A DNA stretch of 64,000 nt from assembly GCA_038233665.1 (NCBI GenBank), contig JBBSVJ010000001.1, positions 13,781 through 77,780 on the forward strand, given 5' to 3'. The stretch is from Lysobacterales bacterium. Its GTDB lineage: Bacteria > Pseudomonadota > Gammaproteobacteria > Xanthomonadales > Rhodanobacteraceae. Within the stretch, counting starts at the first letter, position 1, and every line of letters begins with the position of its first letter. The notes under the pieces are model-generated. The model did not search any database, had not been told where the DNA came from, and saw nothing but the letters and a program-made list of their open reading frames with translations. Positions 9,852 to 44,223 of the stretch are shown piece after piece. Both the position numbers and the translations under genes were made by a program.

Positions 9852-11723
9852 ATGCTGCGAGCCGCCATAGGATTCGTCTTTTTCTTCATCCTGCTTGGTT
9901 TCAGCGGCAGGGCCGAGGCGGGTTGCCTGTCGCCACCACCGAGTTGTCCGGCAGGTACGGTATGCCAGTACGCTTTCGAGTGCCGCAATGACTGGCCGGA
10001 TCCGCGCATTCCTTTCCGCATCTACGTGCCAGAGGCTTGCCAGTTTGGCGGGCGTTGTCCGCTCATCGTTTTCCTGCACGGCCAAGGCGAAATCGGCACT
10101 GACAATCAGGCCCAGCTCGGCAACAACGCCAATGGTGCGATGAAACTCGTGCAGCCGGCGAGGCAGTCCATCGAGCCGATGATCCTGGTCGCGCCTCAGT
10201 GCTGCCATGAGGAAAATGGTCAGTGGAACGGTCAGCAGGATCGACTGATCAACATGCTTGAACAAATTCAGAAAGATTATTCTTACGATCCTCAGCGGAT
10301 CTATCTGACCGGTTTGTCCATGGGCGGAGGCGGCTTGCTGAGTTGGATGAGCACCTACAACAAGGTTTTTGCGGCCGTGGTGCCGCTTGCCCCGCATCAG
10401 GGTTACACAGCGGGCGATGCGGCTTGGGCGCAGACGCCTGCCTGGTTTTTCCACGCCGCCAACGACGGCACTGCGCCAGTTGGTAACTCGCGCAACCATG
10501 TCGCCGCACTGCGCGACGGTGGCGGTGATCCGATCTATACCGAATACGCGAGCGGCGGCCATGGGATCTGGACGCAAAGCTATTCGAGCGACCATCTATT
10601 CAACTGGATGATTGCCCAACGGCTGGGCCGCGAGATGATGCCGGTCGTTCCCGCGTTGCGCATCTTGAGCCCGAGTGCGGGTCCGCTGTGGACAACCTCG
10701 GCGAGCGCAATTGATTTGAACGGAAGCGCGTCAGCCGGCGTAGGCGCGATCAGTTGGTCGAGTCCAACAAACGGCGGCAACGTCAGTGGAACCAACGCAT
10801 GGTCGGTGAACGATTTGCCGCTCGTGACCGGCGACCAGCGCATCCGCGTCACGGGTCGCGGTGCCAGCGAATACCCCAGTCTTGGGGGCTGGACCGATGT
10901 TTCCGACAGCTTGCTCGTGCGCACGCCCGTGCAGAGCAACGCTGCGCCGCGCGTTTTTATTCTCGCTCCGACGCGTGTCCAATCCAGCGAACGGATTGAT
11001 CTTTACGCGCATGTTCTTGACGATGGTTTGCCCGCGCCCTCGGCGCTGTCGGTGAGCTGGTCGTTTGAGAGCGGACCCGCAGCGGCCCAGCTAAGCGTCG
11101 ATCAGGCGGATGATCGTCACGTCTGGATTCCGAATGCGCCGAATGGCAACTACCGCATTCGCGCAGTGGTCAGCGATGGGTCGTTACAGAGCGAATTTGC
11201 CGCGACACTGTTGGTCAGTGATGCCGCCTCGTTGGCTATAGCGATCAATGCCGGCGGCAGCGCGCTAACCGCGGCGGATGGCACGCAGTTCGAGGCCGAC
11301 CAGTATTTTACCAGCGGATCAACATCTTCCAGCGCATCGGGTGCGGCGGCGATTTACGACACGCCGGATGATGCGCTGTACCAGAGCTACCGCCAGGGCT
11401 ACAACAGTTGGGGCTACGATATTCCGGTCGCAAATGGCGACTATCTGGTTATCCTGCATTTTGCGGAAACCTATAACCCAGCCAGCGTTGAAGGCGGCCG
11501 CGTGGCTGATATCCAATTGCAGGATCAGCTGGTTCTAAGCCAATTCAGCGCCTATTCGCTGGTCGGTCAGCGCGCTGCGCTGAGCTTTGCCTTCAACGCC
11601 AACGTCAGCAATGGCCTCCTCAAGATTCGAGCCAATCGCAGCGGCACAACGGGTGAACGAGCACGAATCGACGCGATCGAGGTGTTGCGTCTGGATGAAA
11701 TTTTCAGCGACGGATTTGAGTAG
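9852..11723 (+). CDS. Secreted modular protein: alpha/beta-hydrolase (esterase-like) + Ig/PKD-like + malectin domain
   Basis: Signal peptide after the AAGGA SD. PLIVFLHGQGE, GLSMGG, HAANDG and GHGIW catalytic elements. Malectin-type AINAGG...FEADQYF...LYQSYR...VILHFAE. Ends in DEIFSDGFE. Confidence 0.82.
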   Translation: MLRAAIGFVFFFILLGFSGRAEAGCLSPPPSCPAGTVCQYAFECRNDWPDPRIPFRIYVPEACQFGGRCPLIVFLHGQGEIGTDNQAQLGNNANGAMKLVQPARQSIEPMILVAPQCCHEENGQWNGQQDRLINMLEQIQKDYSYDPQRIYLTGLSMGGGGLLSWMSTYNKVFAAVVPLAPHQGYTAGDAAWAQTPAWFFHAANDGTAPVGNSRNHVAALRDGGGDPIYTEYASGGHGIWTQSYSSDHLFNWMIAQRLGREMMPVVPALRILSPSAGPLWTTSASAIDLNGSASAGVGAISWSSPTNGGNVSGTNAWSVNDLPLVTGDQRIRVTGRGASEYPSLGGWTDVSDSLLVRTPVQSNAAPRVFILAPTRVQSSERIDLYAHVLDDGLPAPSALSVSWSFESGPAAAQLSVDQADDRHVWIPNAPNGNYRIRAVVSDGSLQSEFAATLLVSDAASLAIAINAGGSALTAADGTQFEADQYFTSGSTSSSASGAAAIYDTPDDALYQSYRQGYNSWGYDIPVANGDYLVILHFAETYNPASVEGGRVADIQLQDQLVLSQFSAYSLVGQRAALSFAFNANVSNGLLKIRANRSGTTGERARIDAIEVLRLDEIFSDGFE

Positions 11724-11822
11724 TAGTCGGCACTGGGCTCTTTGTGGCCGCATCGCCGCGCGCTGACGCTTTTCTTCCAACCCGACCAAAAGCGTTCGAT
11801 CACAGATCGAACGCATCAAGAG

Positions 11823-12488
11823 CTATTCGCCTCTTGGCGGGTCACTGCCGGGCGACGTTACGACCGCGGATTGATTCGCCTGGCCTTGCTCAATGGTCCA
11901 GGTGACTACCTTGGGCATCAGTTGGTCGAGCGCTCTGGTGAATGCATCGGCCGCGCTGGCGACCTCATTGCCGGCAGCGGGCGACTCCTCGCTGAACGAG
12001 TGGCTGGCGACGATGCGGTTGCTGCGCCGCTCGAACAATTTGGCGGTGAAGCGGATCGCTGCACGCGGGGAGCCGTCGATGAGTTCTATCTGGAAATCAC
12101 GCAAATCGATGGATAGGGAAAAGTCACCGTTGAGTCCCGCATCCACCGGACTGACGCCGCGGATTCGGCCATCCTGGTCGAAAGCCTGGACAATCAGGCT
12201 GCGCAGCATGGCTGGCGCCGGATCGCGCCAGCGCGCGTTCGGGTAAACCTCCAGCACTCCGGGACGCGTCATGATCGCGATTCGCCGCGTATCCAGCGCA
12301 TCACTCGCATGCGGCGTATCAATCAGCAGCTGCCAATCGATTCGAGTGGTCGAATCGGCTTGTGCCACTGCGCTGACATGCAATTGCGGCGCATATACGA
12401 CATACGCATCGTGCTTGCCACTGAGTGCGGCACAGGCGCCGAGCAGCAGGCTCGTACCGAGAATCAAGAGTCGAGAACTGCGATTCAT
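11823..12488 (-). CDS. ABC-type transport auxiliary lipoprotein (PqiC-like)
   Basis: Lipobox LLGAC, P..S..LDTRRIA and ARWRDPAPAML. Last gene of the MCE operon. Confidence 0.85.
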   Translation of the reverse strand: MNRSSRLLILGTSLLLGACAALSGKHDAYVVYAPQLHVSAVAQADSTTRIDWQLLIDTPHASDALDTRRIAIMTRPGVLEVYPNARWRDPAPAMLRSLIVQAFDQDGRIRGVSPVDAGLNGDFSLSIDLRDFQIELIDGSPRAAIRFTAKLFERRSNRIVASHSFSEESPAAGNEVASAADAFTRALDQLMPKVVTWTIEQGQANQSAVVTSPGSDPPRGE

Positions 12489-13429
12489 TTCGGTTGGTAC
12501 TCCTTGGGTTGATCGCCTCCAAGCAGCAAGGTGTTCGAGCTGCCGAGCTTGTCACTGAGTTGCTTGAATGAGCGCAGTGTCTCGCGCAGATCGAGCAGAG
12601 TCGGGCCAATCTGGCGCAAGCCCTGGTCACTGAAGTTGGCAATCGCCGCCTGGTTCTCATCGAGCATGCGATCGGCGGATCCTGCGACACGTTCGATCGA
12701 GGTGATTGCCTTGTCGGTCGAAGCCATGACCTTGCGCACATCGTTATTGATCAGCTCATTGGTCGTGCTGGCCATCGTATGCAGGGTCGACAGCGTCGAT
12801 TTCAGTTCGCCGCTGGCATCGGCGAGTTGGGTCAAGGCCTTGGCCATATCGCCACGCTGATCGGCGATGGTCGATGCAATGGTGTCGAAATGTTCAAGCG
12901 TGGCCGAAACGTGGTCGACATTCTCCTTGGACAATAACTGACCGATGCGCAGCAGCGATTGGTTGACGCTGGTAACAATGTCATCCCCGGAGGACAGCAA
13001 CTTCGACAGCGCCGACTCCTTGGCCAGGATGATCGGAATGCGATGTTCATCGCTAGGCAGCAATCTTTTGCTTTTTGGTGATCCGCCGCTGAGCTGGATA
13101 AAGGCGGATCCGGTCACGCCGAGCAGGCCGAGCTTTGCCTCGGTGTCGATCTTGACCGGCGTGTCACCATCGAGACGAATACGTGCGATGACCTTGCGCG
13201 GATCATCAGGGGCGAGCTTCAGTTGGGTCACTTCGCCGACCTTGATGCCGTTGTATTGCACCAGTCCGCCCTTGGAAAGGCCGGTGACGGCTTCGGTGAA
13301 AATAACGTCGTAGTAGCCAAACTCTCGATCGGCACTGGTTTTCGATAGCCAGAGCACGAAACCGAGACCGAGCAAAAATGCAAGGATGGCAAAGGTGCCG
13401 ATGAGTACATGATGGGCGCGGGTTTCCAT
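12485..13429 (-). CDS. MlaD/MCE family protein
   Basis: METRAHHVLIG, one TM helix, GLSKGGLVQYNGIKVGEV and a long helical C-terminus. Confidence 0.9.
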   Translation of the reverse strand: METRAHHVLIGTFAILAFLLGLGFVLWLSKTSADREFGYYDVIFTEAVTGLSKGGLVQYNGIKVGEVTQLKLAPDDPRKVIARIRLDGDTPVKIDTEAKLGLLGVTGSAFIQLSGGSPKSKRLLPSDEHRIPIILAKESALSKLLSSGDDIVTSVNQSLLRIGQLLSKENVDHVSATLEHFDTIASTIADQRGDMAKALTQLADASGELKSTLSTLHTMASTTNELINNDVRKVMASTDKAITSIERVAGSADRMLDENQAAIANFSDQGLRQIGPTLLDLRETLRSFKQLSDKLGSSNTLLLGGDQPKEYQPK

Positions 13430-13433
13430 AAGA

Positions 13434-14237
13434 TCAGGTGCCTGCGTTGGGGTGTTTGGGATGATTGCTGACCGCGCGTTGTGCGGCGCGGCCGCGCGGA
13501 CCCTGGAAGTATTCCTGGATCCAGGGCTCGTCGACTTTTTCAACCACTTCGAGTGTGTCGGCGACAAGAATGTGTTTTTTCGCGAGCACGGCCACGCGAT
13601 CGCAAATGGTGTACAGGGTATCGAGATCGTGGGTGATCAGAAAAACCGTCAGGCCGAGACTGTCGCGCAAGGTCAGGATAAGTTGATCGAACGCGGCCGC
13701 TCCAATGGGGTCAAGCCCGGCGGTGGGTTCATCAAGGAAGAGGATGTCCGGATCGAGGGCCAGCGATCGTGCCAGCGCAGCGCGCTTGACCATGCCGCCC
13801 GAAAGCTGGGAAGGATATTTATCCGCTGAATCAAGTGGCAGACCAGCCAGCGCAATTTTGAGCAGCGCCAGGCGATGAACGATGGCCGGATCGAGATGAT
13901 GATGTTCGGTCAGCGCGACTGAAACGTTTTCTGCGACCGTCAGCGATGAGAACAACGCGCCGTTTTGGAACAGCACACCGCAGCGGCGGTCGATCAACGC
14001 GCGTTTTTCATCGGACATCGTGGCAACCTCTTCACCAAACAGGCGAATGCTGCCGGCGGCCGGGTGGCCGAGGCCGATGATCGAACGCAACAACACGGAT
14101 TTCCCCGAGCCCGAACCACCGACGACGCCGATGATTTCGCCGCGCTGTACATCAAGATCGAGATTTTCGTGGACCACCTGCTCGCCAAACTGATTGCGCA
14201 GTCCGCGAATGCGGATGATCGGCTCGGGCGCGCTCAC
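13434..14237 (-). CDS. ABC transporter ATP-binding protein (MlaF-like)
   Basis: Walker A GGSGSGKS, signature LSGGM and Walker B LFLDEP. Confidence 0.93.
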   Translation of the reverse strand: MSAPEPIIRIRGLRNQFGEQVVHENLDLDVQRGEIIGVVGGSGSGKSVLLRSIIGLGHPAAGSIRLFGEEVATMSDEKRALIDRRCGVLFQNGALFSSLTVAENVSVALTEHHHLDPAIVHRLALLKIALAGLPLDSADKYPSQLSGGMVKRAALARSLALDPDILFLDEPTAGLDPIGAAAFDQLILTLRDSLGLTVFLITHDLDTLYTICDRVAVLAKKHILVADTLEVVEKVDEPWIQEYFQGPRGRAAQRAVSNHPKHPNAGT

Positions 14238-15346
14238 AGATTGATCTCCATGAAGAAGATAGCGGCAATCGCATCGATCAGAATGACCACGAAAATCGAT
14301 TGCACGACACTCGATGTGGTGTGCGAACCAACCGATTCAGCGCTGCCGGACACCTTGAAACCTTCCAGACAACCGATCGCGGCGATCAGAAACGCAAAGA
14401 TCGGCGCCTTGCTCATGCCGACCCAGAAATGACGAACGGTGGTCGTCTCGTGCAGGCGCGTGAGAAACATCAGCGGCGAGATATCGAGCGCAAGCACGCA
14501 AACTGCCGCTCCGCCGATGATTCCGGCGAGCATGCCGACCAGGGTCAGGATCGGCATCGACACGAGCATGGCCAGCACGCGCGGCATGACCAGCACATCA
14601 ACCGGTTCGAGGCCAAGAGTGCGGATCGCATCGACTTCCTCGCGCGCTTTCATCGAGCCAATCTGTGCGGTAAACGCGCTGCCGGAGCGGCCGGCGACCA
14701 TGATCGCGGTCAGCAGGACGCCGAATTCGCGCAGAAACGAGTAGCCGACCAGCTCGACCGTATAAATGCTTGCGCCGAACTCCTTGAGAACGGTGGCGCC
14801 GAGAAAAGCCACTACGGCGCCGACCAGAAAACACAACAGAGCAACGATCGGCAGCGCATTCAAGCCGGTCTGCTCGATATGCGAGATGGTTGACGTCGTG
14901 CGCCAGCGACGCGGCACCAGCACGCTGCGACCGAATGCGGAAAGAATCAGGCCAATGAAGCCGATCAGATCGATCGCATTGGCCCAGAAGTTCTCCAGCG
15001 CCACGCCGATATTGGCGATGCTGGCGATAAAGCCTCGTTCCTTGCGCCTTGGCTTGGCGGGTGGCGCGTTTTCGGCCTTGGAAACCGCCGCGATCAGCTT
15101 GCGCGTCGCCTCGCTGGCGACCTCGATGCGCTGCGGATCTTCTCCTGCCAGATCAAGCAGATAGCTTGCTCCTGCCGTATCCACGCGTCCGATAGAGCGC
15201 GCATCAACACGAACGTCGGCCGCCGCTTCACGTTGCAGGCTCGCGCAAAGGCGCGACAAGCCCGCGATGTGTTCAAGCGTCCAGTCACCGCTGATGGTGA
15301 TGTGGCTGCCCTCTGGGCCCAGTTTTGCGTGACCTTGTTCACTCAT
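14234..15346 (-). CDS. MlaE family ABC permease with N-terminal STAS-like domain
   Basis: GRVDTAGA STAS-like motif, REFGVLLTAIMVAGRSGSAFTAQIGSMK and EEVDAIRTLG. Start at MSEQG. Confidence 0.92.
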   Translation of the reverse strand: MSEQGHAKLGPEGSHITISGDWTLEHIAGLSRLCASLQREAAADVRVDARSIGRVDTAGASYLLDLAGEDPQRIEVASEATRKLIAAVSKAENAPPAKPRRKERGFIASIANIGVALENFWANAIDLIGFIGLILSAFGRSVLVPRRWRTTSTISHIEQTGLNALPIVALLCFLVGAVVAFLGATVLKEFGASIYTVELVGYSFLREFGVLLTAIMVAGRSGSAFTAQIGSMKAREEVDAIRTLGLEPVDVLVMPRVLAMLVSMPILTLVGMLAGIIGGAAVCVLALDISPLMFLTRLHETTTVRHFWVGMSKAPIFAFLIAAIGCLEGFKVSGSAESVGSHTTSSVVQSIFVVILIDAIAAIFFMEINL

Positions 15347-15480
15347 GCGCGAAAGGTTATCAGCAAATTTCCCGATCCCCTTGAACCGGCGCCGAACAAG
15401 CCCTTCGCGTCGCTTCAAATGAAATGTTCAGGCTTGCGCCAAACCTTCATAATGTCGACGCGCCTGTCTGGATTGCCCGA

Positions 15481-16716: not shown

Positions 16717-17390
16717 CCCTGTTTGCGCGTCTGCCGCGCTGGGTATTCGCCGGGGGTGCCTTGCTCGCATTCATCGCCGGCATCATCAATGCGACTGGCT
16801 TTCTTGGTGTTCAGCATCAAGGAATTACCCATCTGACCGGCACGACGACCCTGCTCGGCATCGCAATCGGTCAGCACGATATGCCCATGGCAATCCACTT
16901 TGCCATGATGATCGGGGCTTTCATGGCCGGCTGCGTGATCAGCGGACTGATCATTCAGGATTCGACCCTTCGCCTCGGCCGTCGCTATGGCGTTGTGTTG
17001 GTGCTGGAATCCCTGCTGCTGGTGGCGGCCGTCCCGTTGCTTGTGCATGCCAACGTCAGCGGGGACTATCTCGCGTCGGTCGCTTGTGGTTTGCAGAACG
17101 CGATGGTCAGCACCTACAGCGGGGCGGTGCTGCGCACGACGCACTTCTCGGGCACCTTGACCGATCTCGGTATCTTTCTCGGCCATCGTTTGCGCGGGCT
17201 GCCGGTCGATGGGCGGCGCATCCGTCTGCTGCTTGCCCTGGTCCTGGCATTCCTCATTGGAGCGGTCGCTGGTACATGGCTATTCACCGCATTCACTTAC
17301 CATGCGCTATACGTACCGGCTGCGTTGACCGGAGCCGGCGGCGCAGCCTACGGACTTTACCGGCACTTCGAAATGCGCCGTAAAGGCTGA
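16713..17390 (+). CDS. YoaK/DUF1275 family membrane protein
   Basis: LAFIAGIINA, THLTGTTT, GLQNA and RTTHFSGTLTDLG. Overlaps the upstream stop by 4 bp. Confidence 0.88.
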   Translation: MTLFARLPRWVFAGGALLAFIAGIINATGFLGVQHQGITHLTGTTTLLGIAIGQHDMPMAIHFAMMIGAFMAGCVISGLIIQDSTLRLGRRYGVVLVLESLLLVAAVPLLVHANVSGDYLASVACGLQNAMVSTYSGAVLRTTHFSGTLTDLGIFLGHRLRGLPVDGRRIRLLLALVLAFLIGAVAGTWLFTAFTYHALYVPAALTGAGGAAYGLYRHFEMRRKG

Positions 17391-17578
17391 GCGACCTACT
17401 TGAATCGGGTGGCAAACAGCGTAACCGCGTTGAGTGTTGTTGATATGCGCGCATCAGAGGCTCGCAGATGGAGAAGTATTGAAGCGGTTCGCCGTATCCG
17501 CGCAACCCTCACGCGCGCCTCAGGCTGGTTGCTGGCTTTGCTACAACCGATCCCCCATTTCTCATTTCCAATTCCCGC

Positions 17579-21568: not shown

Positions 21569-21693
21569 ACACGAATCGGCAACCGACTGTCGTTTCAGCG
21601 GACTCGAAAGAGCCCGGCCAAACGGCGAATCTATTCGTCAAATTGAATTAGAAGCTCTCCCGTGTAAGGGCGCCAACCTTTGAATCGCAATGG

Positions 21694-23514: not shown

Positions 23515-23522
23515 TCCTGATC

Positions 23523-23652: not shown

Positions 23653-25782
23653 GTGCAACCCACGATTCCGGAAGCCACCGTGCCGCACTCGAATATCGAT
23701 GCGATGCAGCGAATTGAAGACAAACTGGTGTCTTCGCCTGCTGCGCGCGAGCAATGGAGCGCAACGGCGGCTATCCGCAATGCCGTGCTTGCCGAGCTGG
23801 AGATTTTGCAGACCGGGCCGGTTGCGCGCGACGCCTTGCTGCTGTTCGAAGCACAATTGGCCGGCTGCCTATTCAGCGAAGCAGAGCTTCAGGCTTTCGG
23901 TAACGAAGTGGCCGATCTGGTCGAAGGTCAGCGCGCCGCCGAGAAGGTCTGGTCACTCTACGCCGCGCGCAGTGGCGCAGGTGCAGCTGAGGGGCTTCGT
24001 CGACTATTGCTCGCGATCATCCGCGACTTGCGCGTGGTTTTTATCCTGCTCGCCCGACAATTGGTGTTGATGCGTCGGGCGGCCGAAATCGGCGACGTCG
24101 AGCGCCAGTCGTTGGCCCAGTTGACCGCAGACATCCACGCGCCGCTGGCCAATCGACTTGGCATCTGGCAACTCAAGTGGGAACTCGAAGATCTGGCGTT
24201 CCGCTATCTGCAGCCGGATACCTATCGAAAAATCGCAAGGCTGCTCGACGAGCGACGCGGTGACCGTGAAGCCTGGATCGCGAACGCGACCGATCTGCTG
24301 CGCAGCGCATTGGCCACGGCCGAAATCGAGGCGGATGTCGCTGGACGGCCCAAGCACATCAGCTCGATCTGGCGAAAAATGCAGAAAAAAGGGCTAGATT
24401 TTTCCGACCTCTACGATATTCGCGCACTGCGCGTGCTCGTTCGCGACGTGCCTTCCTGCTACGCCGCGTTGGGCGTTGTGCATTCGCAATGGCCATTCAT
24501 CGCCGGTGAGTTCGACGACTATATCGCCAGTCCGAAAGGCAATAATTACCAATCACTGCATACCGCGGTGATCGGCCCGGAAGGTCGAACTCTGGAAGTA
24601 CAAATTCGATCGCACGACATGCATGCCTATGCCGAGCTCGGTTTCGCCGCGCATTGGCGCTACAAGGAGGGCAGCGGTGGAGATGCGAGCTTCGAGCGCA
24701 AGATCGCCTGGATGCGCCAGCTGCTCGAAGGTCGCGAAGAACACGACGACGACGCCAGTCTGCTTGCCGGGTTCCGCACCGATGTCATTGAGGATCGGGT
24801 CTATCTGCTGACCCCGAAAGGCCAGGTACTGGATTTGCCGAAGGGCGCTACCGTGCTCGATTTCGCCTACATCGTGCACACCGACGTGGGTCACCGTTGC
24901 CGTGGTGCCAAGGTCAACGGACGCATCGTGCCGTTGACTTTTCAGCCGAACAGCGGCGATCGCATCGAGATTCTCACCGGCAAGAGCGCCGAGCCGCGAC
25001 GTGACTGGTTGTCGACGCATCACGGATTTTTGCAGACCGCGCGAAGTCGCAACAAGGTTCGCAACTGGTTTCGCCAAGCTGATCGCGAGATCAACGTCGC
25101 CGCCGGTCGTAGTGTGCTTGATCGCGAACTCAAGCGGCTCGCGTTGCACAATGTCGATCTCGACAGCTTGCCGATACGCTTCCATTTGCGAGCTGTTGAA
25201 GATCTTTACGAAGCGATTGCGCTGGGTGACGTGACGCCTACCCAGATCGCGCGCACCTTGCACGAGGGCGAGCGCCGCGAGGACGCTGTCAGCGCCCGGG
25301 TTTTGCCGGTTTCCAAGCCGATCGTCCCGGCCAAAGATGCCTTGGTCATCGAAGGCGTTGGCAACCTGCTATCGGTGCTGGCGCGTTGCTGCCAACCGGT
25401 GCCCGGAGATGCGGTTGCCGGCTTCATCACGCGGGGGCGTGGGGTCAGTGTTCATCGGACTGACTGCCGACAGCTGCAGCGGCTGCGTTTGCGTGATGCC
25501 GATCGCATCATTGATGTCGAGTGGGGCGGCGCCAAACAACGCGCCTACGAGGTTGATGTGCTGGTGCGCGGCTACGACCGCAAAGGCCTGCACAAGGATG
25601 TCAGCAACGTGATTGCTGCCGCCAACATCCACATTCTCGCGATCGAGGCGCGCAGCGACCCGGCCAGCAACGAGGTCAGCATGAGTCTGGCTTTGCGGGT
25701 AGCCGATTTTGGACAACTTTCGACCCTGCTCAGCCAATTGCATGCGGTGCCCAACGTGATCGAGGCGCGGCGGCGAGCCTGA
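23653..25782 (+). CDS. relA: (p)ppGpp synthetase RelA
   Basis: APLANRLGIWQLKWELED, GRPKHISSIWRKM, DIRALR and EFDDYIASPKGNNYQSLHT, then TGS, CCQPVPGD and ACT domains. The hydrolase region is degenerate. Confidence 0.95.
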   Translation: MQPTIPEATVPHSNIDAMQRIEDKLVSSPAAREQWSATAAIRNAVLAELEILQTGPVARDALLLFEAQLAGCLFSEAELQAFGNEVADLVEGQRAAEKVWSLYAARSGAGAAEGLRRLLLAIIRDLRVVFILLARQLVLMRRAAEIGDVERQSLAQLTADIHAPLANRLGIWQLKWELEDLAFRYLQPDTYRKIARLLDERRGDREAWIANATDLLRSALATAEIEADVAGRPKHISSIWRKMQKKGLDFSDLYDIRALRVLVRDVPSCYAALGVVHSQWPFIAGEFDDYIASPKGNNYQSLHTAVIGPEGRTLEVQIRSHDMHAYAELGFAAHWRYKEGSGGDASFERKIAWMRQLLEGREEHDDDASLLAGFRTDVIEDRVYLLTPKGQVLDLPKGATVLDFAYIVHTDVGHRCRGAKVNGRIVPLTFQPNSGDRIEILTGKSAEPRRDWLSTHHGFLQTARSRNKVRNWFRQADREINVAAGRSVLDRELKRLALHNVDLDSLPIRFHLRAVEDLYEAIALGDVTPTQIARTLHEGERREDAVSARVLPVSKPIVPAKDALVIEGVGNLLSVLARCCQPVPGDAVAGFITRGRGVSVHRTDCRQLQRLRLRDADRIIDVEWGGAKQRAYEVDVLVRGYDRKGLHKDVSNVIAAANIHILAIEARSDPASNEVSMSLALRVADFGQLSTLLSQLHAVPNVIEARRRA

Positions 25783-25877
25783 TTTTGCAGCACATTCGTA
25801 GCGGCCATCCGAGGGTTTGGGCTGATATGCTATCGCCCTCGCTGCAGTGCCGCCTTGGGCATGGAAAGAACTCGCCT

Positions 25878-28424
25878 GTGATCGAAATTCCTGGATACCG
25901 ATTGTTGCGGCAACTTGGCCGCGGCGGCATGGCTACCGTGTATCTGGCGGTCCAGGAATCCGTTGACCGCGAAGTTGCGCTCAAGATCATGTCACCCGCC
26001 TTGCTGGCCGACCCGAATTTCGGTGAACGGTTTCTGCGCGAGGCCAAGATCGCCGCGCGGTTGCATCACCGTCACGTCGTCGGCATCCATGATGTCAGTC
26101 GCGTTGGCGACTATCACTACATGGCGATGGAGTATCTCGCCGGCGGTCCGGTGCTGAGCAAGCAAGGCCCGGCCCGGCCTGTTTCATTTGCCTTGCGCGT
26201 GACCCGCGAGATTGCCGGCGCGATCAACTACGCGCAGCAAAAAGGTTTCATTCACCGCGACATCAAGCCCGACAATATCCTGTTGCGCGATGATGATTCC
26301 GCCGCACTGACCGATTTCGGTATTGCGCGAGCCAATGATTCGGCAACGCGCATGACGCGCACGGGCGCGGTCGTCGGTACGCCGCACTACATGAGCCCCG
26401 AGCAGGCCCGCGGCAAGCCGCTTGACGGGCGTGCCGATCTCTACAGCCTCGGCGTCGTGCTTTACGAAATGCTGGTCGGTCGCGTGCCCTATCACGCCGA
26501 GGATTCACTCGCCGTCGGTATCATGCATATCACCCAGCCGGTGCCCAAACTGCCGGAATCGCTGGCCGTGCTGCAACCGCTCGTTGATGGCCTGCTCGCC
26601 AAGGAGCCGCACGACCGATTCCAGACGGGCAACGATGCAGCGATGGCGATTGCACGCTACGAAAAGGCCATTGCCAACGGAGAACTTCCCGATCTGGCGG
26701 ATGATGCGATGCAGGCAGCGCGCATGGTTCGCTCGATGGACACCAGTGTCTCACCCCGGCCTGAAACTTTGATCTCGCCGCGGCCGAACTCCTCCGATCA
26801 AAGTTCGCGTAATCGCTCTGATCCGAGCATGGGTCGGCTGGAGGAAATTCTTGCTGCGACCGACGATCACATCATGCGCGCGAGTCGCGTATCAAACCGT
26901 CGGGCCAAGGCGAAGCGTCGGGTCAATGGAATCTGGATTGTTCTGATTGTGTTGCTCATCGGCGTCGGCGCCGGTGGCTTCATGTTGTGGAAACATCAGG
27001 ATTGGTTGCGCGCTTTTCTGCCCAATACCGAGATGAACGACATGCTTGCGCGAGCGCAAAAAGCACTCGAAGCGGGTAATCTCGATGGCAATCAGGGAGA
27101 TAGCGCGCGTGAGTTGTTTCAGACTGCCCGCGCACAGGATCAGGATAACGATATTGCTCGCCGCGGGTTGCGTGCGGTTGGTGAAAAGTTGATTGAACGA
27201 GCACGCGACGCGTTGAAGCGTAACGATGCCGGCCTCGCTCGCCAAGCGGTGGCGGCAGCCCGCGAGTTGCTTGGTGGCGGCGCTGACGTGGAAGATGTGG
27301 AAAAATCAATCGCGGCAATCGATGCGCACGGTACCGAGGCGGAAACCGAGCTGAGCAAGGCGCAAGCGGCATTCGACGCTGGCCATCTGCTGGGCGATGA
27401 CGGTGCCGTGGCGATCTACCAACGTGCCTTGCTCAGTGAAACCGGCAGCGCGCTGGCCCGCGCCGGAATCAATCGCTGCGTTGATCAACTCGCCGTGCAG
27501 GCGCGCGCGGCGTTCGAGGCAAACGATCTCGCCAATGCATCATCGCGGATCGAGGATATCGCGCGCATCCTGCCAGCGTTTCCGGAATTGCCCGAGTTGC
27601 GCGCGCAACTGGGCCAGCATCGCGACGCGGCAGCAGCCGATCTAGAAAAGGATCTGACACGCGCCGAGGCGCAGTTGCGCGCAGGACGGATCAGCGGTAA
27701 TGCGGATTCGGCGCAAACCTTGTTCGAATCCGTGATCACGCGCGAGAGCAACAACGCCCGCGCGAAAGCGGGTCTGCGCAGAGTCGCCCAAGCACTCGTT
27801 GTGCAGGCGCGCGCGGCGCTCGAAAACAGCAATCCCGGGGCCGCAGATCGGCTGCTCAAGCAAGCGGAGGCACTCGCAGGAGATCTACCTGATTTGCGTG
27901 CAGCGCGCGTCGATCTGCGTGAAATGCGGGAACGTCTGGCGATTGCCGCCGAACGACCCGTGGCCACTGCCTCCGACCTTGATCGGATGCGCAACCTGAT
28001 CGCCGAGGCGGACCAGGCGGCCAGCGCAGGGCGACTGATCAATCCGCCGGGCAACAGCGCCTATGATAAATACCGAGCCGCGCTCGCGATCGATGGCGAC
28101 AACACCGCGGCGCAGCAGGGCTTGGAGAAGATTCCAGGCCTCGCTCGCGCATTGTTCGACAAGGAACTTGCGGCGGGTGCCTTGAATCGAGCACTCGGTA
28201 TGCTTGAGGTTGTGCGTCAAACTGCACCATCGGATTCGTCGCTGCTGCCAATGTCTGAGCGCTTGGCCAATGCTTACCTGGATCTGAGCGAAAAACTGAT
28301 TGGTGAAAAACAGTCCGCCGCCGCCGAGCGTTCGTTGCAAACCGCACGTAAACTGAGCCCGACCAACCCGCGCCTGACAGCGGTGGAAGGATTGCTGCGC
28401 GGCCTGCCTGCGACCCAAGGCTGA
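25878..28424 (+). CDS. Transmembrane Hanks-type Ser/Thr protein kinase with repetitive helical extracytoplasmic domain
   Basis: GRGGMATVYLA, VALKIM, HRDIKPDN, DFGIA and GTPHYMSPE. One TM helix and four TPR-like repeats. A GTG start is inferred. Confidence 0.92.
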   Translation: MIEIPGYRLLRQLGRGGMATVYLAVQESVDREVALKIMSPALLADPNFGERFLREAKIAARLHHRHVVGIHDVSRVGDYHYMAMEYLAGGPVLSKQGPARPVSFALRVTREIAGAINYAQQKGFIHRDIKPDNILLRDDDSAALTDFGIARANDSATRMTRTGAVVGTPHYMSPEQARGKPLDGRADLYSLGVVLYEMLVGRVPYHAEDSLAVGIMHITQPVPKLPESLAVLQPLVDGLLAKEPHDRFQTGNDAAMAIARYEKAIANGELPDLADDAMQAARMVRSMDTSVSPRPETLISPRPNSSDQSSRNRSDPSMGRLEEILAATDDHIMRASRVSNRRAKAKRRVNGIWIVLIVLLIGVGAGGFMLWKHQDWLRAFLPNTEMNDMLARAQKALEAGNLDGNQGDSARELFQTARAQDQDNDIARRGLRAVGEKLIERARDALKRNDAGLARQAVAAARELLGGGADVEDVEKSIAAIDAHGTEAETELSKAQAAFDAGHLLGDDGAVAIYQRALLSETGSALARAGINRCVDQLAVQARAAFEANDLANASSRIEDIARILPAFPELPELRAQLGQHRDAAAADLEKDLTRAEAQLRAGRISGNADSAQTLFESVITRESNNARAKAGLRRVAQALVVQARAALENSNPGAADRLLKQAEALAGDLPDLRAARVDLREMRERLAIAAERPVATASDLDRMRNLIAEADQAASAGRLINPPGNSAYDKYRAALAIDGDNTAAQQGLEKIPGLARALFDKELAAGALNRALGMLEVVRQTAPSDSSLLPMSERLANAYLDLSEKLIGEKQSAAAERSLQTARKLSPTNPRLTAVEGLLRGLPATQG

Positions 28425-33896: not shown

Positions 33897-33948
33897 GCCG
33901 ACCGAGCGAACGTCGGCAGACTGCTAAACTGGCGATCACTCCAGCCGT

Positions 33949-36255: not shown

Positions 36256-36337
36256 TCACGGAACAAACGCGATGGGATTCAGAAGGTTTGCAATTGACGT
36301 TATGCTTGGGCGCTTCAGCACAACGTATAGACCTGCC

Positions 36338-36874: not shown

Positions 36875-36945
36875 TCGCGACTCATGGCCGCGCTGCTGCG
36901 CGTTGCAGCAACGCTTTGGCGCCACGCTGAGTAGCCGAAACGAGC

Positions 36946-38880: not shown

Positions 38881-39106
38881 GGGTGGTCAGCGCCTTCAGG
38901 TGGAGTGCGTGAATATCGTGCGTCTTCAGTCCACTCATGCTGAACAAACTGAATACGCTGAACCAAGCCTTGTGCATTTGCCCGAGTAAGAGTCCGATGC
39001 TATAAAACAAGGTCTGTCGATCCGGACTTCAGCAATGAAGCGTCGACGGCGAGTGCAAGTACCTCCCTATTTTATACCTTTTAGATTTTCCAACTGGAGT
39101 CTGGTA

Positions 39107-41458
39107 ATGGCAATGGCAACATCATTTCGAGTGACGGCTCTCGCGGCCGTGATCGGCGCGTGTCTTGGTGGCAATGCGTTGATTAACAATGCGGATGCCG
39201 CCAGCCCCAGCAAACAAACGGCAGCGTCAATCAACACCTACATCATCAAGTTCACCGATGCCGGTGCGCTTCACTACCAGGGTGGCGTTGCCAGCCTGCG
39301 TGCAACGGCACCGGATCCGACGGCCCGCGCGCGAAAGTTTGACGCAACCAGTGCTGATTCAAAAAACTATCGCGCCTACTTGCGTCAGCGCCAGCAAGAT
39401 TCCATCGCGACCATGTCCTCTTTGATTGGTCATCCGCTGGAAGTGACTCACACCTATGAGGTTACTGCTAGCGGCATTGCCGCCAAATTGACCTCCGCAG
39501 AAGCGGCAGCAATTGCCAGCGCGCCGGGTGTTGAATCGGTTAGTCAGGAAGAGATCCAGCATCTTGATACCTATCGTGGTCCGACCTTCATCGGTGCTGA
39601 CACGGTCTGGAAGTCACCGACGACAGGTTCCATTACCGGTCGCGGCAAGGGTGTGGTGGTCGGTGTACTCGATAGTGGTGTGAATTCGACACATCCCTCG
39701 TTCGCCGATGATGCGATGTGCGGATTTGGCCCTGGCGACCACAAGCTGCTCAGCGCACGAGATTGCGACACATCAACCGCAGGCGTCTGCAACGGTCCGG
39801 ATCCAGAGGCCGGCAGCTCCGGCCATGGTGTGCATACAGCCAGCACTGCAGCCGGAAACTCGGTTACCAACGCCGCATCGCCATCGCCAAACTTGCCTGC
39901 GCCGTATACGCAGATGTCCGGCGTAGCGCCATGCGCTTCCGTGCGCACTTACAAGGTTTGCCCGGGTGATACCTGCGGTGGAGCGGCGATTCAGGCCGGT
40001 ATCGAGAACGCGATCATCGACGGTGTGGACGTCATCAACTACTCGATTTCAGGTGGTACCACTCCATGGGGTGATGCCGATCGAACCTTCCTCGATGCGG
40101 TGAATGCCGATATCGTCGTTGCCGCTTCGGCAGGCAATACCCGCGCGGAAACTCCCAGCCCCATTGGCAATGTCAATCATCGTGGCCCTTGGATGATGAC
40201 GGTCGCCGCTTCGACCCAGGATGTGAATCTGGGTTCGGGTCTGTCAGCAACCGGTCCCGGTACGCCGCCGGCCAACACGCAGAACCTTCTGGCAGCTCTC
40301 GGCAGCAATATCACCGCACCAGTTCCGTTCACGGATCTTCCCATCCGTGTTTCTTCCACCAACTTGATTGGTTGCACGGCAGGCGGCGCGTTTCCGGCTG
40401 GATTCTTCAGCGGTGCGGTTGCCCTGATTCAACGCGGAACTTGTCCGTTTACAGAGAAGGTCGGCAACGCAGCGGCTGCCGGTGCGGTACAGGTGATCAT
40501 CTACAACAACACCTTCGGCACCATCAACATGAACACCGACGGTGCGACTATCCCGGCTTACAGCATTACCCAGCCCGCGGGTGTCGCGATGAACGCTTTC
40601 ATCACGGCTAACGGAGCGACTCCGACCACGGCCAGTTTGAGTGCGCGAATTGCCGGACCGGTGCAGGGTGATGTGTTGGCAGACTTCAGCTTCCGCGGCC
40701 CGATTGCGGGCAACTTGGCCGACTTGACCAAACCGGATATCACCGGACCTGGCGTCAATATCTACGCGGCTGGGCGTGCCGCCGACGGCAACTACTTCAC
40801 GATTAGCGGTACCTCGATGTCGAGCCCACATCTGGCGGGATCGGCGGCCCTGGTGCGTGCGGTCAATCCGGACTGGACACCAACCGAAGTCAAATCCGCG
40901 CTGTTGCTGACGGCCAAGCTGACCGGAACGCAAGAAAACCAAAGCACACCCTGGAACGTGGATGATATCGGCAGCGGTCGTGTGGATCTGACAGCTGCGC
41001 CGCATGCGGGCTTCGTGATGGATGAGACATTCGCCAACTTCCTGGCGGCCAATCCATCGGGTGGTTCGATCAACGTCAAGGAATTGAACCTTCCTTCCGT
41101 TCGCGTCACCGGACTTTCGGCCGTCTCACCGGTCTACACGTGGGTGCGTACCCTGCGTAACACGGCTTCCGGTCCGACCACCTGGAATGTCAGCGTGGAT
41201 CAGCCGCCTGGCGTGGTGGTAACGGTCAGCCCGAGCACGTTCGCGTTTACCGGTGCCGGTGTTCAAGACCCCGAGCATATCTTTACCGGTAATTTCGAAA
41301 GCACGGCAGCACCAGGTGCGGCAGAGACGCAGACGATCTTGATTACTGCGACAACGACTGCAGCGACAACGGGTATTGCGTTCGGTGAGGTCAAGTTCAC
41401 CGAGAGCAATAATGACGCTCCGCCGGCACATATCACCGTAGCGGTGAAGCGCCAGTAA
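39107..41458 (+). CDS. Secreted S8 subtilase with I9 propeptide, PA domain and C-terminal FN3-like domain
   Basis: VGVLDSG (Asp), HGVHTAST (His) and SGTSMSSPH (Ser). PA motif ALIQRGTCPF..K. Confidence 0.93.
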   Translation: MAMATSFRVTALAAVIGACLGGNALINNADAASPSKQTAASINTYIIKFTDAGALHYQGGVASLRATAPDPTARARKFDATSADSKNYRAYLRQRQQDSIATMSSLIGHPLEVTHTYEVTASGIAAKLTSAEAAAIASAPGVESVSQEEIQHLDTYRGPTFIGADTVWKSPTTGSITGRGKGVVVGVLDSGVNSTHPSFADDAMCGFGPGDHKLLSARDCDTSTAGVCNGPDPEAGSSGHGVHTASTAAGNSVTNAASPSPNLPAPYTQMSGVAPCASVRTYKVCPGDTCGGAAIQAGIENAIIDGVDVINYSISGGTTPWGDADRTFLDAVNADIVVAASAGNTRAETPSPIGNVNHRGPWMMTVAASTQDVNLGSGLSATGPGTPPANTQNLLAALGSNITAPVPFTDLPIRVSSTNLIGCTAGGAFPAGFFSGAVALIQRGTCPFTEKVGNAAAAGAVQVIIYNNTFGTINMNTDGATIPAYSITQPAGVAMNAFITANGATPTTASLSARIAGPVQGDVLADFSFRGPIAGNLADLTKPDITGPGVNIYAAGRAADGNYFTISGTSMSSPHLAGSAALVRAVNPDWTPTEVKSALLLTAKLTGTQENQSTPWNVDDIGSGRVDLTAAPHAGFVMDETFANFLAANPSGGSINVKELNLPSVRVTGLSAVSPVYTWVRTLRNTASGPTTWNVSVDQPPGVVVTVSPSTFAFTGAGVQDPEHIFTGNFESTAAPGAAETQTILITATTTAATTGIAFGEVKFTESNNDAPPAHITVAVKRQ

Positions 41459-41483
41459 TCGTCACAACCAAAGCGTGAAACTT

Positions 41484-41512
41484 GAAGCCCGGGCATGCCC
41501 GGGCTTCTTTTT
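41484..41512 (+). terminator. Rho-independent terminator
   Basis: The perfect palindrome GAAGCCCGGGCATGCCCGGGCTTC is followed by TTTTT. Confidence 0.88.
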
Positions 41513-41775
41513 GTCTGCAGATCGGATTTTCTGAAGAAGAACTACCGCGATTAACTGCATTTCTAACGAATAAGCGGGTTGGGCCATTGCGCTTAGTTGC
41601 TGCTTGAAGCAACGATCCCATCGGGTTTGCAGTCGGCTAATCCAGATTTGAGCTGAAGATTCGGCTCGACGAAAGCCTGGATTGTCTGGGTCGCCACAGG
41701 CGAACTGGCCAACAGCGCAAGGGCGATCTGATCGATGTGCTAGTTTGCCCGGATGATTATTCAGGGAATTTGCGC

Positions 41776-44223
41776 ATGACTGCAGGATCAAGAGTTGCCT
41801 TTGCCTTTCTCATCGTGTTGCTTAGCCTGAATGGGCACGCTGCTACCCGCCATGCTGGCGAGTGCATCGATGGTGTTGCCGAGGGTTATGCCTGCAGCCA
41901 TGTTGACCTGCTTGGCCATCTCGACCTGCTCCAACTCGGCACGACGGTCTCGGGCAATGGCAACGATATGTGGGGCTGGACCGATCCCGATTCCGGCAAG
42001 GAATATGCGCTGATCGGCCTCAACAACGGCACGGCTTTCGTTGATATTTCTGATCCGCAAAATCCCCTGCGCCTGGGCAACCTTCCAACCCACAGCGTCA
42101 ACTCACTCTGGCGTGACATCAAGACCTTTGGTCATTACGCGCTGATCGTTTCCGAAGCGCAGAACCACGGCATGCAGATTTTCGACCTGCACCATCTGCG
42201 TGATGTGATCACGCCGCCAATCACCTTTTCCGAGGATGCGTGGTATGGCAACTTCGGGCGTGCGCATGACATTGTCGTCAACGAGTCCTCCGGTTTCGTC
42301 TACGCAGTCGGATCGCGTCAGGGTACGCAACAGTGCAATGCAGGCCTGCACATGATCAACATGCAGAATCCGCTGGTTCCGGCATTTGTCGGATGTTTCA
42401 GCGCGGATGGCTACACCCATGATGCCCAGTGCATCAACTACGACGGCCCCGATGCCGATTATCTCGGCCATGAAGTCTGTTTCGCCGCAAACGAGGACAC
42501 GTTGACGATTGTCGATGTGAGCAACAAGGCAAGTCCGGTACAGATTTCACGCACCGGTTATAGCGGCTCCGGTTACGCGCACCAAGGCTGGCTCAGTGAC
42601 GATCGACGCTACATGCTGTTCGATGACGAGCTCGACGAACAGAACGACGGACACAACACGCGAACTTATGTCTGGGATGTGCAGGATCTCGACGCTCCTC
42701 ACGTCGATTTCACCTATGACGGCCCAACCAAAGCCATTGACCACAACCTCTATATCCATGAAGGCTACGCTTACGAATCGAATTACCAAGCCGGTTTGCG
42801 CATTCTCGATCTGTCCAAGATCGACAGTGACGTTTTGACTGAAGCTGCGTTTTTCGATACCCATCCGGAGAGTGACAGTGCCGATTTCGAAGGCGCATGG
42901 AGCAACTATCCGTTCTATGCGAGTGGTGTGGTCGGCGTCAGTGATATCAACCGCGGATTGTTTTTGTTGCAGCCTGAGTTGTGTCGAGCGCCGCTACCGG
43001 CAAGTGGCCTGAGCGCGGTTGGCAACGGCGACCATCGGATCGATCTCAGCTGGAGCCCGACGACAACGCCAGGCGCCAGCTACTCGATTGATCGGATTGT
43101 TGGCGGATGCAGCGGCAGCGCGGTCGAGACCATCACCAGCGGATTGAGTGGTACGAGTTTCAGCGATACCTCGGCCTCGGGAACGGTGACTTACGGCTAT
43201 CGTGTTCGCAGTGTGGCCGCATCGGGTGAATGCTCGGCGGCAGCCAGTGCTTGCGTCGAAGCAAGCACGACGGGAACCTGTACCGCAGCGCCGGCGTTCG
43301 ATGGGATTTTCAGCCTGCAGTCTGCCGCAACTTCATCGTGTGCTCTCGATCTGAGCTGGCAATCCGCGAGCTCGTATTGCGGTGCCGGTGCGAGCTTCAG
43401 CGTTTACCGATCGCAGGATGCGGGATTTACGCCGGCTCCGGCCGATCAGGTGAGTTCGTCGGTTTCCGGCCTTTCATGGACGGATACAGCGATCGCCGCC
43501 GGTGTCGACTACACCTATGTCGTTCGCGCTACCGATACCGGCAATGGCAGCATGGATGGCAACAGCGTGCGCTTGAGCGCTCGTGCGACGGGTCCGATCA
43601 GTGATGGTGATTATTTCAGCGGCGCGGAAACCGGAACGGCCATGCTTTCTGGCGTCGGAGAAACCCCGCTTGTGAGGCAACCGACGGCACCGGCGCACGT
43701 GGCTTGGGAAATTGTCGACAGCCAGGCGCACAGCGGAGCACGCAGCTATTTCTCCGGCTACAACAACTCTGAATGTCTGTCGATCGGGAGTGGGCCAATC
43801 TCGCTGAGCGCGGGACAAAACTCGATGATGGAATTCTGGACCCGCTACGGCATCGAAGCCGGTTACGACGGCGGCGTCGTGCAGATATCGAGCAATGGTG
43901 GACAGGATTGGTCGACGATTGCGCCGATTGGTGGCTATCCGGCGAGCTTCAACGGCAACAACACGAACGCCTGTGGTCTACCGACCAACAGCGGTAATTA
44001 TTCCGGCACCAACGCTGCGAACCTGGATTGGTCTGCACAGCAATTTGATCTATCCGCCTATGCCGGACAAACGATTCAGTTGCGCTGGCGCTTCAGCACC
44101 GATGGCGGAGTGACCGCAGACGGTTGGTGGATCGACGATATCCGTATCACCCACGCCCAAGTGCCCGGCATGTGCATGTCGAGCAATGATGTGATCTTTG
44201 TTGATGGATTCGAGATGTTGTGA
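41776..44223 (+). CDS. Choice-of-anchor B family secreted protein with FN3-like and C-terminal beta-sandwich domains
   Basis: Signal peptide, GNDMWGWTDPDSGKEYALIG, WRDIK, YTHDAQC, HQGW, HNLY and WSNYPFY. Ends in NDVIFVDGFEML. Confidence 0.85.
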   Translation: MTAGSRVAFAFLIVLLSLNGHAATRHAGECIDGVAEGYACSHVDLLGHLDLLQLGTTVSGNGNDMWGWTDPDSGKEYALIGLNNGTAFVDISDPQNPLRLGNLPTHSVNSLWRDIKTFGHYALIVSEAQNHGMQIFDLHHLRDVITPPITFSEDAWYGNFGRAHDIVVNESSGFVYAVGSRQGTQQCNAGLHMINMQNPLVPAFVGCFSADGYTHDAQCINYDGPDADYLGHEVCFAANEDTLTIVDVSNKASPVQISRTGYSGSGYAHQGWLSDDRRYMLFDDELDEQNDGHNTRTYVWDVQDLDAPHVDFTYDGPTKAIDHNLYIHEGYAYESNYQAGLRILDLSKIDSDVLTEAAFFDTHPESDSADFEGAWSNYPFYASGVVGVSDINRGLFLLQPELCRAPLPASGLSAVGNGDHRIDLSWSPTTTPGASYSIDRIVGGCSGSAVETITSGLSGTSFSDTSASGTVTYGYRVRSVAASGECSAAASACVEASTTGTCTAAPAFDGIFSLQSAATSSCALDLSWQSASSYCGAGASFSVYRSQDAGFTPAPADQVSSSVSGLSWTDTAIAAGVDYTYVVRATDTGNGSMDGNSVRLSARATGPISDGDYFSGAETGTAMLSGVGETPLVRQPTAPAHVAWEIVDSQAHSGARSYFSGYNNSECLSIGSGPISLSAGQNSMMEFWTRYGIEAGYDGGVVQISSNGGQDWSTIAPIGGYPASFNGNNTNACGLPTNSGNYSGTNAANLDWSAQQFDLSAYAGQTIQLRWRFSTDGGVTADGWWIDDIRITHAQVPGMCMSSNDVIFVDGFEML

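Follow-up and report, generated by a model that had tools for sequence, protein, structure and literature searches.

The 64,000-nucleotide stretch of a Lysobacterales bacterium genome analyzed here (contig JBBSVJ010000001.1 of assembly GCA_038233665.1; hereafter the window) contains two genes, designated P1 and P2, whose secreted products close with a common short peptide, which we refer to as the DGFE tail. The P1 gene (9852..11723, plus strand) codes for a secreted esterase-malectin protein of 623 amino acids (aa) when read from the ATG at 9852, with an alternative GTG start at 9813 in the list of open reading frames (ORFs), and was also called on a Logan contig. Its product comprises a Sec signal peptide with an approximate cleavage position (MLRAAIGFVFFFILLGFSGRAEA followed by G; 9852..9920, +; A-x-A site inferred by eye), an alpha/beta-hydrolase domain resembling polyhydroxybutyrate (PHB) depolymerase-like esterases (10005..10490, +; Pfam Esterase, Peptidase_S9 and PETase; NCBIfam esterase_phb, E=1e-13) and a malectin domain (11235..11648, +; PF11721, E=7e-28, residues 475-612 of the 636-aa ORF); the tail comes after the last malectin strand, and the C-terminal third of P1 used as a query gave only weak malectin matches. 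The P2 gene (41776..44223, +) codes for a secreted choice-of-anchor B protein of 815 aa from the ATG at 41776. An approximate Sec signal peptide (MTAGSRVAFAFLIVLLSLNGHAA; 41776..41844, +; inferred by eye) precedes the choice-of-anchor B domain, an LVIVD beta-propeller (41860..42972, +; TIGR04312, E=2.1e-149, residues 42-412 of the 828-aa ORF) that scores 497.8 bits against a membership cutoff of 100. Fn3-like beta-sandwich domains follow (42973..43728, +; NCBIfam CbhB Fn3 region, 417-618; all-beta and of high confidence in the AlphaFold model), and then an InhA-like MAM or choice-of-anchor J jelly roll (43729..44166, +; PF20773, E=2.8e-17), whose last AlphaFold strand ends at residue 797 of 815. 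The spacer between this jelly roll and the tail is 7 residues long and includes a conserved Cys.

Read directly, the P1 ORF (9852/9813..11723, +) ends in ...RIDAIEVLRLDEIFSDGFE and then TAG-TAG (C-terminal residues ...ARIDAIEVLRLDEIFSDGFE), and the P2 ORF (41776..44223, +) in ...SSNDVIFVDGFEML and then TGA (C-terminal residues ...THAQVPGMCMSSNDVIFVDGFEML). Sequence, regular-expression and DNA-pattern scans place the tail of P1, DEIFSDGFE, at 11694..11720 (+), with TAG TAG directly after, and that of P2, DVIFVDGFE plus ML, at 44188..44220 (+), before a TGA at 44221-44223; the motif is thus followed by 0 residues in P1 and by 2 in P2, among which there is no hydrophobic or basic stretch. A six-frame scan of the window with the regular expression [DE]x[ILV]Fx[DN]GF[ED] gave 2 matches, both closing long ORFs, and the degenerate DNA pattern ATHTTYNNNGAYGGNTTYGAR, which encodes IFxDGFE, also gave 2 matches versus 0.00 expected from 100 dinucleotide shuffles. 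The two DNA copies have 18 of 27 nucleotides in common and differ at synonymous sites, which indicates that the repeat is one at the protein level. P1 and P2 are themselves non-homologous, with a different domain make-up, and both carry Sec-type signal peptides when read from their ATG starts. These observations bear out the description given in an earlier note on this DNA, namely two unrelated signal-peptide proteins ending in DEIFSDGFE and DVIFVDGFEML, one of them belonging to the choice-of-anchor B family, with a tag that has neither a transmembrane (TM) helix nor a basic tail. A candidate third copy, HIFTGNFES (window 41276-41299), was rejected on the grounds that it is internal, falls within an Fn3_6 domain and bears N at the position where G is otherwise invariant. 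It is located 52 residues before the stop of an S8/PA subtilase (39107-41458, +) just upstream of P2, and we judge it to be a coincidental look-alike.

Beyond the window, carriers of the DGFE tail are unrelated secreted proteins. A Pfam search of 20 tagged proteins returned FG-GAP, SBBP with DUF7948, a lactonase propeller with Calx-beta, GSDH, GH44, an MtrC-like multihaem cytochrome with Big_9, BNR, a DUF5122 propeller, subtilase S8, beta-helix, SpoIID and HZS_alpha, and no match for 6 of the 20. Using a crude test for signal peptides (a basic N-region followed by a hydrophobic region), we detected one in 35 of 39 tagged ORFs versus 62 of 137 untagged neighbors (Fisher p=3.5e-7). The claim of the earlier note that the tag sits on unrelated secreted proteins, against which a lack of such enrichment would have told, therefore holds. 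Subtilases are frequent carriers of either the genuine tag or the longer domain described below (L086, L120, L123).

The tail is also kept within both protein families. In an exhaustive HMMER search, homologues with the same architecture as P2 retain it at 38-54% identity behind a spacer of variable length: P0009 ends in ...PGMCTSSLELIFANGFE, P0008 in ALFADGFE, P0012 in AVFANGFEGSP and P0016 in AFLRDGFEG, each directly before the stop, P0011 and P0026 carry a 21-residue form, and P0017 is without the tail. Among 38 esterase-malectin homologues of P1, at 42-48% identity, almost all end in D-x-[IL]F-x-x-G-F-[DE] plus 0-2 residues after a variable spacer of 2-7 residues, and P0177 and P0230 have the extended form; the closest named relatives are Dokdonella sp. 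proteins (44-48% identity), in line with an origin near Lysobacterales/Rhodanobacteraceae, and no P1 relatives were found in a metagenome scan. At the DNA level, all 67 C-terminal 27-mers recovered from the genome scan described below are distinct and mix synonymous codons. From the conservation of the tail across divergent homologues and from these varied codons we conclude that it is under purifying selection as a peptide, and that it is not a remnant in decay or a repeat at the DNA level.

We scanned one genome per species (185,579 species, 596 Gb) with the pattern GANNNNATHTTYNNNGAYGGNTTYGAR, which encodes [DE]xIFxDGFE. At least 120 stretches were returned, with 126 matches among those listed, to which the counts that follow refer; the chance expectation is about 200 matches in 596 Gb by our own arithmetic, assuming uniform base composition. 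The matches are strongly biased toward Dokdonella, other Lysobacterales, Marinicella, Wenzhouxiangella and Thermoanaerobaculia. They include the Dokdonella isolates D. soli, D. fugitiva, D. immobilis and D. ginsengisoli, other Lysobacterales (Rhodanobacteraceae, Lysobacteraceae, Aquimonas, Rudaea, Denitratimonas), Wenzhouxiangella, and Marinicella (Marinicella sp. W31 and M. litoralis, with a complete genome in the genus), as well as unclassified gammaproteobacterial metagenome-assembled genomes (MAGs), other Acidobacteriota, one Deltaproteobacteria MAG and Chloroflexota. In 46 of the 126 matches the motif lies 0-4 residues before the stop, in 17 it lies 5-12 residues and in 4 it lies 13-30 residues before it; 29 are internal, 5 directly follow a signal peptide, 7 are cut by the end of the locus and 18 are in short, chance-like ORFs. 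In Lysobacterales, 33 of 35 in-ORF motifs are C-terminal (no more than 30 residues from the stop), as are 10 of 11 motifs in Marinicella and Wenzhouxiangella. The 29 chance-like matches in all other taxa, which serve as an internal control for this bias, include no C-terminal motif among their 16 in-ORF cases. A looser regular expression applied to neighboring ORFs detected 18 more tails in loci of the target lineages, none of which fits the original scan pattern, versus 0 of 354 ORFs in other taxa, and some target-lineage loci hold 3-4 tagged genes. These results agree with the statement in the earlier note that the motif is common in this lineage. With 2 tagged genes in the 64-kb window, 1 in the 21.5-kb locus L124 and, in roughly 300 kb of DNA flanking the Lysobacterales motifs, 8 extra tails, a genome may hold tens of tagged genes, perhaps a hundred or more, a figure that only extrapolates from regions chosen for containing the tag.

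The motif occurs in three forms. The short form, [ILV]Fx[DNS]GF[ED] plus 0-4 residues, is that of Lysobacterales and relatives; 0, 1, 2, 3 and 4 residues follow the E in 14, 14, 6, 7 and 5 cases, respectively. The extended form, IFxDGFESGDxSAWSxxxP directly before the stop, is 21 residues long, with exactly 12 residues after the E in 9 cases, and is found in Acidobacteriota (Thermoanaerobaculia) and one Deltaproteobacteria MAG (3 matches). The long form is that of Chloroflexota, Vicinamibacteria and some Thermoanaerobaculia; here a linker rich in Pro and Thr precedes the motif, which opens a domain of about 200 aa with the sequence IFxDGFESGNLSAW..GGDLSV..AAAL...RYRARFYFDPN...GTEYFDAFxSTR..IGP. 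The motif of P1 and P2 is identical to this opening in L011, L019, L025, L069, L070, L103, L105 and P0158-P0161, and the two window proteins are without the jelly-roll body of about 190 aa, their stops falling 0-2 residues past the motif. The motif is also found directly past the signal-peptide cleavage site in L056 (6814-6840; ...ALATAASG before the site and DSIFVDGFEPTRW... after it), L061 and L108, which indicates that the module can sit at the mature N-terminus as well. Taken together, the DGFE tail is a modular element conserved at the protein level, with the consensus [I/L/V]-[F/L]-x-[D/N/S]-G-F-[E/D] then 0-4 residues.

One apparent exception to the long form proved to be an artefact. 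P0165, a 168-aa protein that we considered as a stand-alone jelly roll lacking the opening segment, and hence as a possible receptor, was rejected after we located its gene in L123 (1150-3507, on a 588-kb contig of long reads): frameshifts there break up a gene that encodes a subtilase, a Pro/Thr linker and a ConA-like domain, the motif lies in another frame, and the gene caller consequently gave a protein starting inside the ConA-like domain. P0163, P0164 and P0166-P0168 (168-176 aa) share this internal Met as their start and are likely artefacts of a similar kind.

Structure prediction places the tail outside the folded body of P2. In the full-length AlphaFold2 model (51-row alignment; mean predicted local distance difference test (pLDDT) score 90.7), the MAM-like jelly roll extends to residue 797, and residues 805-815, which hold the tail, have a pLDDT below 50 and no secondary structure; the tail is thus predicted to be flexible and not docked in cis. 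As regards the beta-strand addition to a partner that the earlier note suggested, the model goes no further than this lack of docking in cis. We rejected the idea that the tail completes the malectin or MAM domain before it as a final strand, given the variable spacers, the diverse preceding folds and the disorder in the model. The long-form domain (P0161, 14 rows) is modeled as a jelly roll with a pLDDT of 85, and its best Foldseek matches (E about 1e-7) are the ConA/LamG-like folds of TtX122, the clostridial neurotoxin HCN domain, collagen IX NC4 and calreticulin. Its first nine residues, which are the motif, have a pLDDT below 50, with only 5 alignment rows covering them. The MAM-like domain of P2 opens with an analogous strand, GDYFSGAE, that is confidently placed.

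Comparison with other homologues offers a view of what else can stand at the position of the tail. Choice-of-anchor B homologues bear, at the same position, endings that resemble the C-terminal domain (CTD) of type IX secretion system (T9SS) substrates, a TM anchor or a dockerin (the last in P0094, P0109, P0123 and P0141), and distant homologues of the P1 esterase have either PEP-CTERM-like TM tails (Cys/Gly-rich in P0218, P0227 and P0228) or an ...APSHAVITITV[LF] ending (P0216, P0219 and P0221-P0225, one of them from Lacunisphaera sp.). In both families, therefore, the DGFE tail occupies the slot of anchoring or sorting signals used in other lineages. A second short tail without a TM helix was observed in this slot, [FY]-[LIV]-P-[LIVF]-[IVL]-x-[RK] plus 0-3 residues (typically x-Y-L-P-L-I-x-R/K; for instance ...IYLPLITR, ...FIYLPIILKP and ...YLPVLLRP), on the P2 homologues P0021, P0029-P0031, P0039, P0054, P0072, P0073, P0078, P0086, P0135, P0139, P0149 and P0154; it may be a second undescribed tag, possibly of a Chloroflexota type.

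To our knowledge, bacterial C-terminal sorting signals are either tripartite (motif, TM helix and basic tail) or folded domains. With the tripartite signals (PEP-CTERM/exosortase, GlyGly-CTERM/rhombosortase, LPXTG/sortase, IPTL-CTERM and MYXO-CTERM) the DGFE tail shares a short C-terminal motif on unrelated signal-peptide cargo, restriction to certain lineages, many cargo proteins per genome and the same slot on homologues. It differs in having no TM helix and no basic cluster, with 0-4 residues after the motif and often none; 46 of the 67 C-terminal instances have at most 4 residues after the E. Since many tails end exactly at that E, sortase-like cleavage C-terminal of the motif is ruled out, and no sortase, exosortase or rhombosortase was seen in the window or the fetched flanks. 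Processing of the sortase, exosortase or rhombosortase type is thus excluded, there being no TM helix or basic tail and often no leaving group. The T9SS CTD is likewise C-terminal, TM-less and carried by Sec-exported proteins of diderms, but it is a folded beta-sandwich of about 70-100 aa from Bacteroidota and relatives, whereas the DGFE tail has 7-9 residues (21 when extended) and is predicted to be disordered; the 9-11-residue tails of the window proteins matched neither Por_Secre_tail nor the type B models and have a pLDDT below 50. Dockerin-cohesin pairing, a non-covalent C-terminal docking on secreted enzymes, is the closest functional analogy for the explanation favored below, yet a dockerin is a duplicated, Ca-binding F-hand module of about 60-70 aa, nothing resembling a cohesin was identified as a partner of the tail, and Pfam Dockerin_1 matched neither P1, P2 nor the tails.

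Other short or terminal signals fit no better. Type I secretion substrates lack an N-terminal Sec peptide and carry a C-terminal signal of about 50-60 aa, often with RTX repeats; P1, P2 and 35 of 39 tagged ORFs differ in having Sec-type signal peptides, and no RTX domains were found. The beta-signal of outer-membrane proteins (OMPs) and peptides read by PDZ or TPR domains (DegS/OMP YxF, Hop-EEVD, PEX5-PTS1) are also short terminal peptides read in an extended state, but these have a fixed carboxyl register, whereas the DGFE motif lies 0-4 (or 12) residues from the end and is also found N-terminally and in linkers; moreover, the beta-signal ends in an aromatic residue on the last barrel strand, and the tails end in E/D or variably, on carriers that are soluble propellers, sandwiches and hydrolases. 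There is also a likeness in sequence to ConA-like, LamG, MAM and choice-of-anchor J jelly rolls, for which F-x-(D/E)-G-F-E-x-G...W is the usual opening; P1 and P2 differ from these in that no domain follows the motif. Readthrough or frameshifting into a downstream domain was judged unlikely given the double stop and convergent gene after P1 and the non-coding repeat array after P2, and no jelly-roll body was noticed in the translations read downstream of the two genes (in-frame contexts and ORF lists for 9000-13000 and 41000-46000), a region in which no homology search was made.

The tails matched no Pfam or NCBIfam model, including the curated sorting-domain HMMs, at E<=10. The long-form domain also had no match in these databases other than a weak one to NTTRR-F1 (E=0.012) on its first 50 residues, had no sequence match in the PDB, and all its database homologues are named "hypothetical protein". 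A full-text literature search (motif strings, choice-of-anchor, and Dokdonella or Xanthomonadales sorting) found nothing relevant.

The contexts of tagged genes in the fetched loci are dispersed and housekeeping-like, and no conserved neighbor, receptor or enzyme gene was found in them. When the 1,477 ORFs of 62 gammaproteobacterial loci (from Lysobacterales, from Marinicella/Wenzhouxiangella and from gammaproteobacterial MAGs without classification) were clustered all against all, a single untagged family stood out as recurrent, a Ser/Thr kinase with TPR repeats present in 9 loci. This kinase is about 900 aa long, with an N-terminal Pkinase domain, one TM helix near residue 380-410 and periplasmic TPR repeats, and its gene is the immediate, co-directional neighbor of the tagged gene in at least 4 loci, with gaps of 66-750 bp. 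Kinases near tagged genes were recorded in L015, L017, L028, L038, L042, L051, L064, L083 and L109, and in L059, L060, L073 and L108. We regard this adjacency as no more than a tentative lead toward a possible receptor. The window has a kinase of its own, an 879-aa Hanks-type Ser/Thr kinase (25785-28424, +) with one predicted TM helix near residue 378 and a C-terminal region of about 500 aa without a Pfam match; the ORF directly upstream (23653-25782) looks RelA/SpoT-like by eye only.

The explanation that we favor, albeit with somewhat less than even confidence, is that the DGFE tail is a docking or retention tag on exported enzymes that is captured in trans by a partner in the envelope. The partner would bind the tail as an extended peptide or an added beta-strand and, once the enzyme has been exported, would keep or dock it there by non-covalent contacts, in the manner of a minimal dockerin. 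Since the tail appears flexible, unpacked in cis and placed in the slot of anchoring signals, capture in trans seems the most likely of its possible fates; recognition in trans, the retention or docking function and the binding mode are parts that we infer. A broader proposal, which we find possible and hold with greater reserve, is that the tail is the cargo signal of an undescribed TM-less docking or sorting system of Lysobacterales-type Gammaproteobacteria, Thermoanaerobaculia and some other diderms, in which a peptide of 7-21 residues, derived from the start of a ConA-like jelly roll, would be recognized by a dedicated trans receptor in the envelope for surface display of exoenzymes. The receptor might be an incomplete jelly roll, acting by strand complementation, or a periplasmic TPR domain, and each genome would supply it with tens of cargo proteins, perhaps a hundred or more. 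Such a sorting or display system had been put forward in the earlier note; its undescribed character stands, in that no Pfam or NCBIfam model and no paper were found and the tail takes the anchor slot, but no receptor or sorting enzyme was identified. Several observations weigh against the docking tag. The motif also occurs at inter-domain linkers, after signal peptides and at the opening of ConA-like domains, and need not be a C-terminal signal as such; its distance from the carboxyl end varies from 0 to 4 residues, which makes a PDZ or TPR-clamp type of reader, anchored on the carboxylate, no simple fit; the low pLDDT can reflect a short unaligned end instead of true disorder; and the lack of a conserved neighbor gene in the tagged loci counts on the same side.

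The main rival, which we think unlikely while giving it real weight, is a domain-boundary stub, the motif being the N-terminal segment of a ConA-like module that was lost repeatedly, with the stub kept as a cap or protection of the domain or linker before it, for instance against exoproteolysis or fraying, and with no partner in trans. It would account for the Chloroflexota and Vicinamibacteria proteins in which the motif (IFxDGFESGNLSAW...) opens the ConA/LamG-like jelly roll of about 200 aa, for the graded series of full domain, 21-aa tail and 7-9-aa tail on related carriers (P0096, P0011, P0026, P0009), for tails that often run into Pro-rich linker-like residues (AGPPPG, GSPPPVD, EPTPP) and for the analogous GDYFSGAE strand of P2. 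It is harder to reconcile with F, G and F being invariant in dozens of homologues at about 45% identity while the spacer varies, which is unlike a decaying remnant; a structural cap is also made unlikely by the presence of the tail after many folds and its unpacked state in the AlphaFold model, and in the long-form model the motif, a merely putative integral strand, is of low confidence. On whether the tail might be a fragment of a known domain, an outcome that the earlier note had set against its own proposal, the answer is divided: no Pfam or NCBIfam match was obtained, yet the motif does open an unannotated ConA-like domain. We consider it improbable that the tail is instead an export signal, read by an outer-membrane translocation route such as type II secretion that moves folded periplasmic proteins out. 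The carriers are indeed exoenzymes of a typical degradative kind that bear Sec signal peptides and come from diderms, and a secretion signal, the T9SS CTD, fills the same slot in Bacteroidota-like homologues; however, we know of no linear signal for type II secretion, the motif also opens a domain in Chloroflexota proteins, and no linked secretion genes were seen in the window or the fetched loci. Less probable still is a ligand for periplasmic sensing or quality control, to which a tail-specific protease, or the TPR domains that membrane Ser/Thr kinases have in the periplasm, would bind and so couple the load of exported proteins to signaling or turnover. TPR domains read acidic C-terminal peptides, as in Hop-EEVD and PEX5-PTS1, and tblastn with the kinase domain placed a Hanks-type kinase of about 900 aa within the 8-kb block around a tag in 12 of the 83 loci from the target lineages (Gammaproteobacteria, Acidobacteriota and Deltaproteobacteria) versus 0 of 29 in other taxa and 0 of 8 in Chloroflexota. 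On the other hand, a kinase lies 13 kb from P2 in the window as well, the enrichment may be about twofold or less, most tagged genes (including P1, P2 and two more members of the family, L124 and L125) have no kinase nearby, and the kinases of different loci show little conservation in their periplasmic parts. Finally, the view that the likeness is due to chance, to a translated DNA repeat or to an error of assembly or annotation has nothing in its favor beyond the shortness of the motif and is effectively refuted, its probability being negligible: zero copies were expected in the window where 2 are found, the 67 C-terminal DNA versions all differ, on which ground the translated repeat was rejected, and the tail is kept in independent assemblies and in isolate genomes of Dokdonella and Marinicella species.

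The DNA derives from soil metagenomes, and the surroundings of both window genes are ordinary chromosomal contexts. P1 lies near an Mla operon and an amidase gene, and downstream of its double stop is a convergent gene. Between the amidase gene and P1 (window 9275-9700) are small genes of 76 aa (RelB3_C match) and 55 aa, from the L002 gene calls, which may form a toxin-antitoxin-like pair. P2 is flanked by the subtilase gene and thrABC. A tandem array of about 4-5 copies of a 48-49-nucleotide unit (window 44290-44532; 76-85% matches) begins 70 nucleotides past the P2 stop, in the gap of about 960 bp before thrC; it has no Rfam match, and a 135-aa minus-strand ORF overlapping it is probably spurious.

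If the favored explanation is true, a helix-less tag of 7-9 residues on many unrelated exoenzymes would constitute a new class of signal and would point to unknown machinery in bacteria that are abundant in soil, wastewater and marine environments (Dokdonella, Marinicella, Thermoanaerobaculia). In practice, the motif supplies a simple regular expression with which numerous exported or surface proteins of these bacteria can be flagged, and the tail is a very short candidate tag for protein display. Two unannotated families are worth curating, the DGFE tail and the ConA-like domain of about 200 aa opened by the same motif. Even as a domain-boundary stub, the motif would explain a recurrent feature of these proteins that automated annotation ignores.

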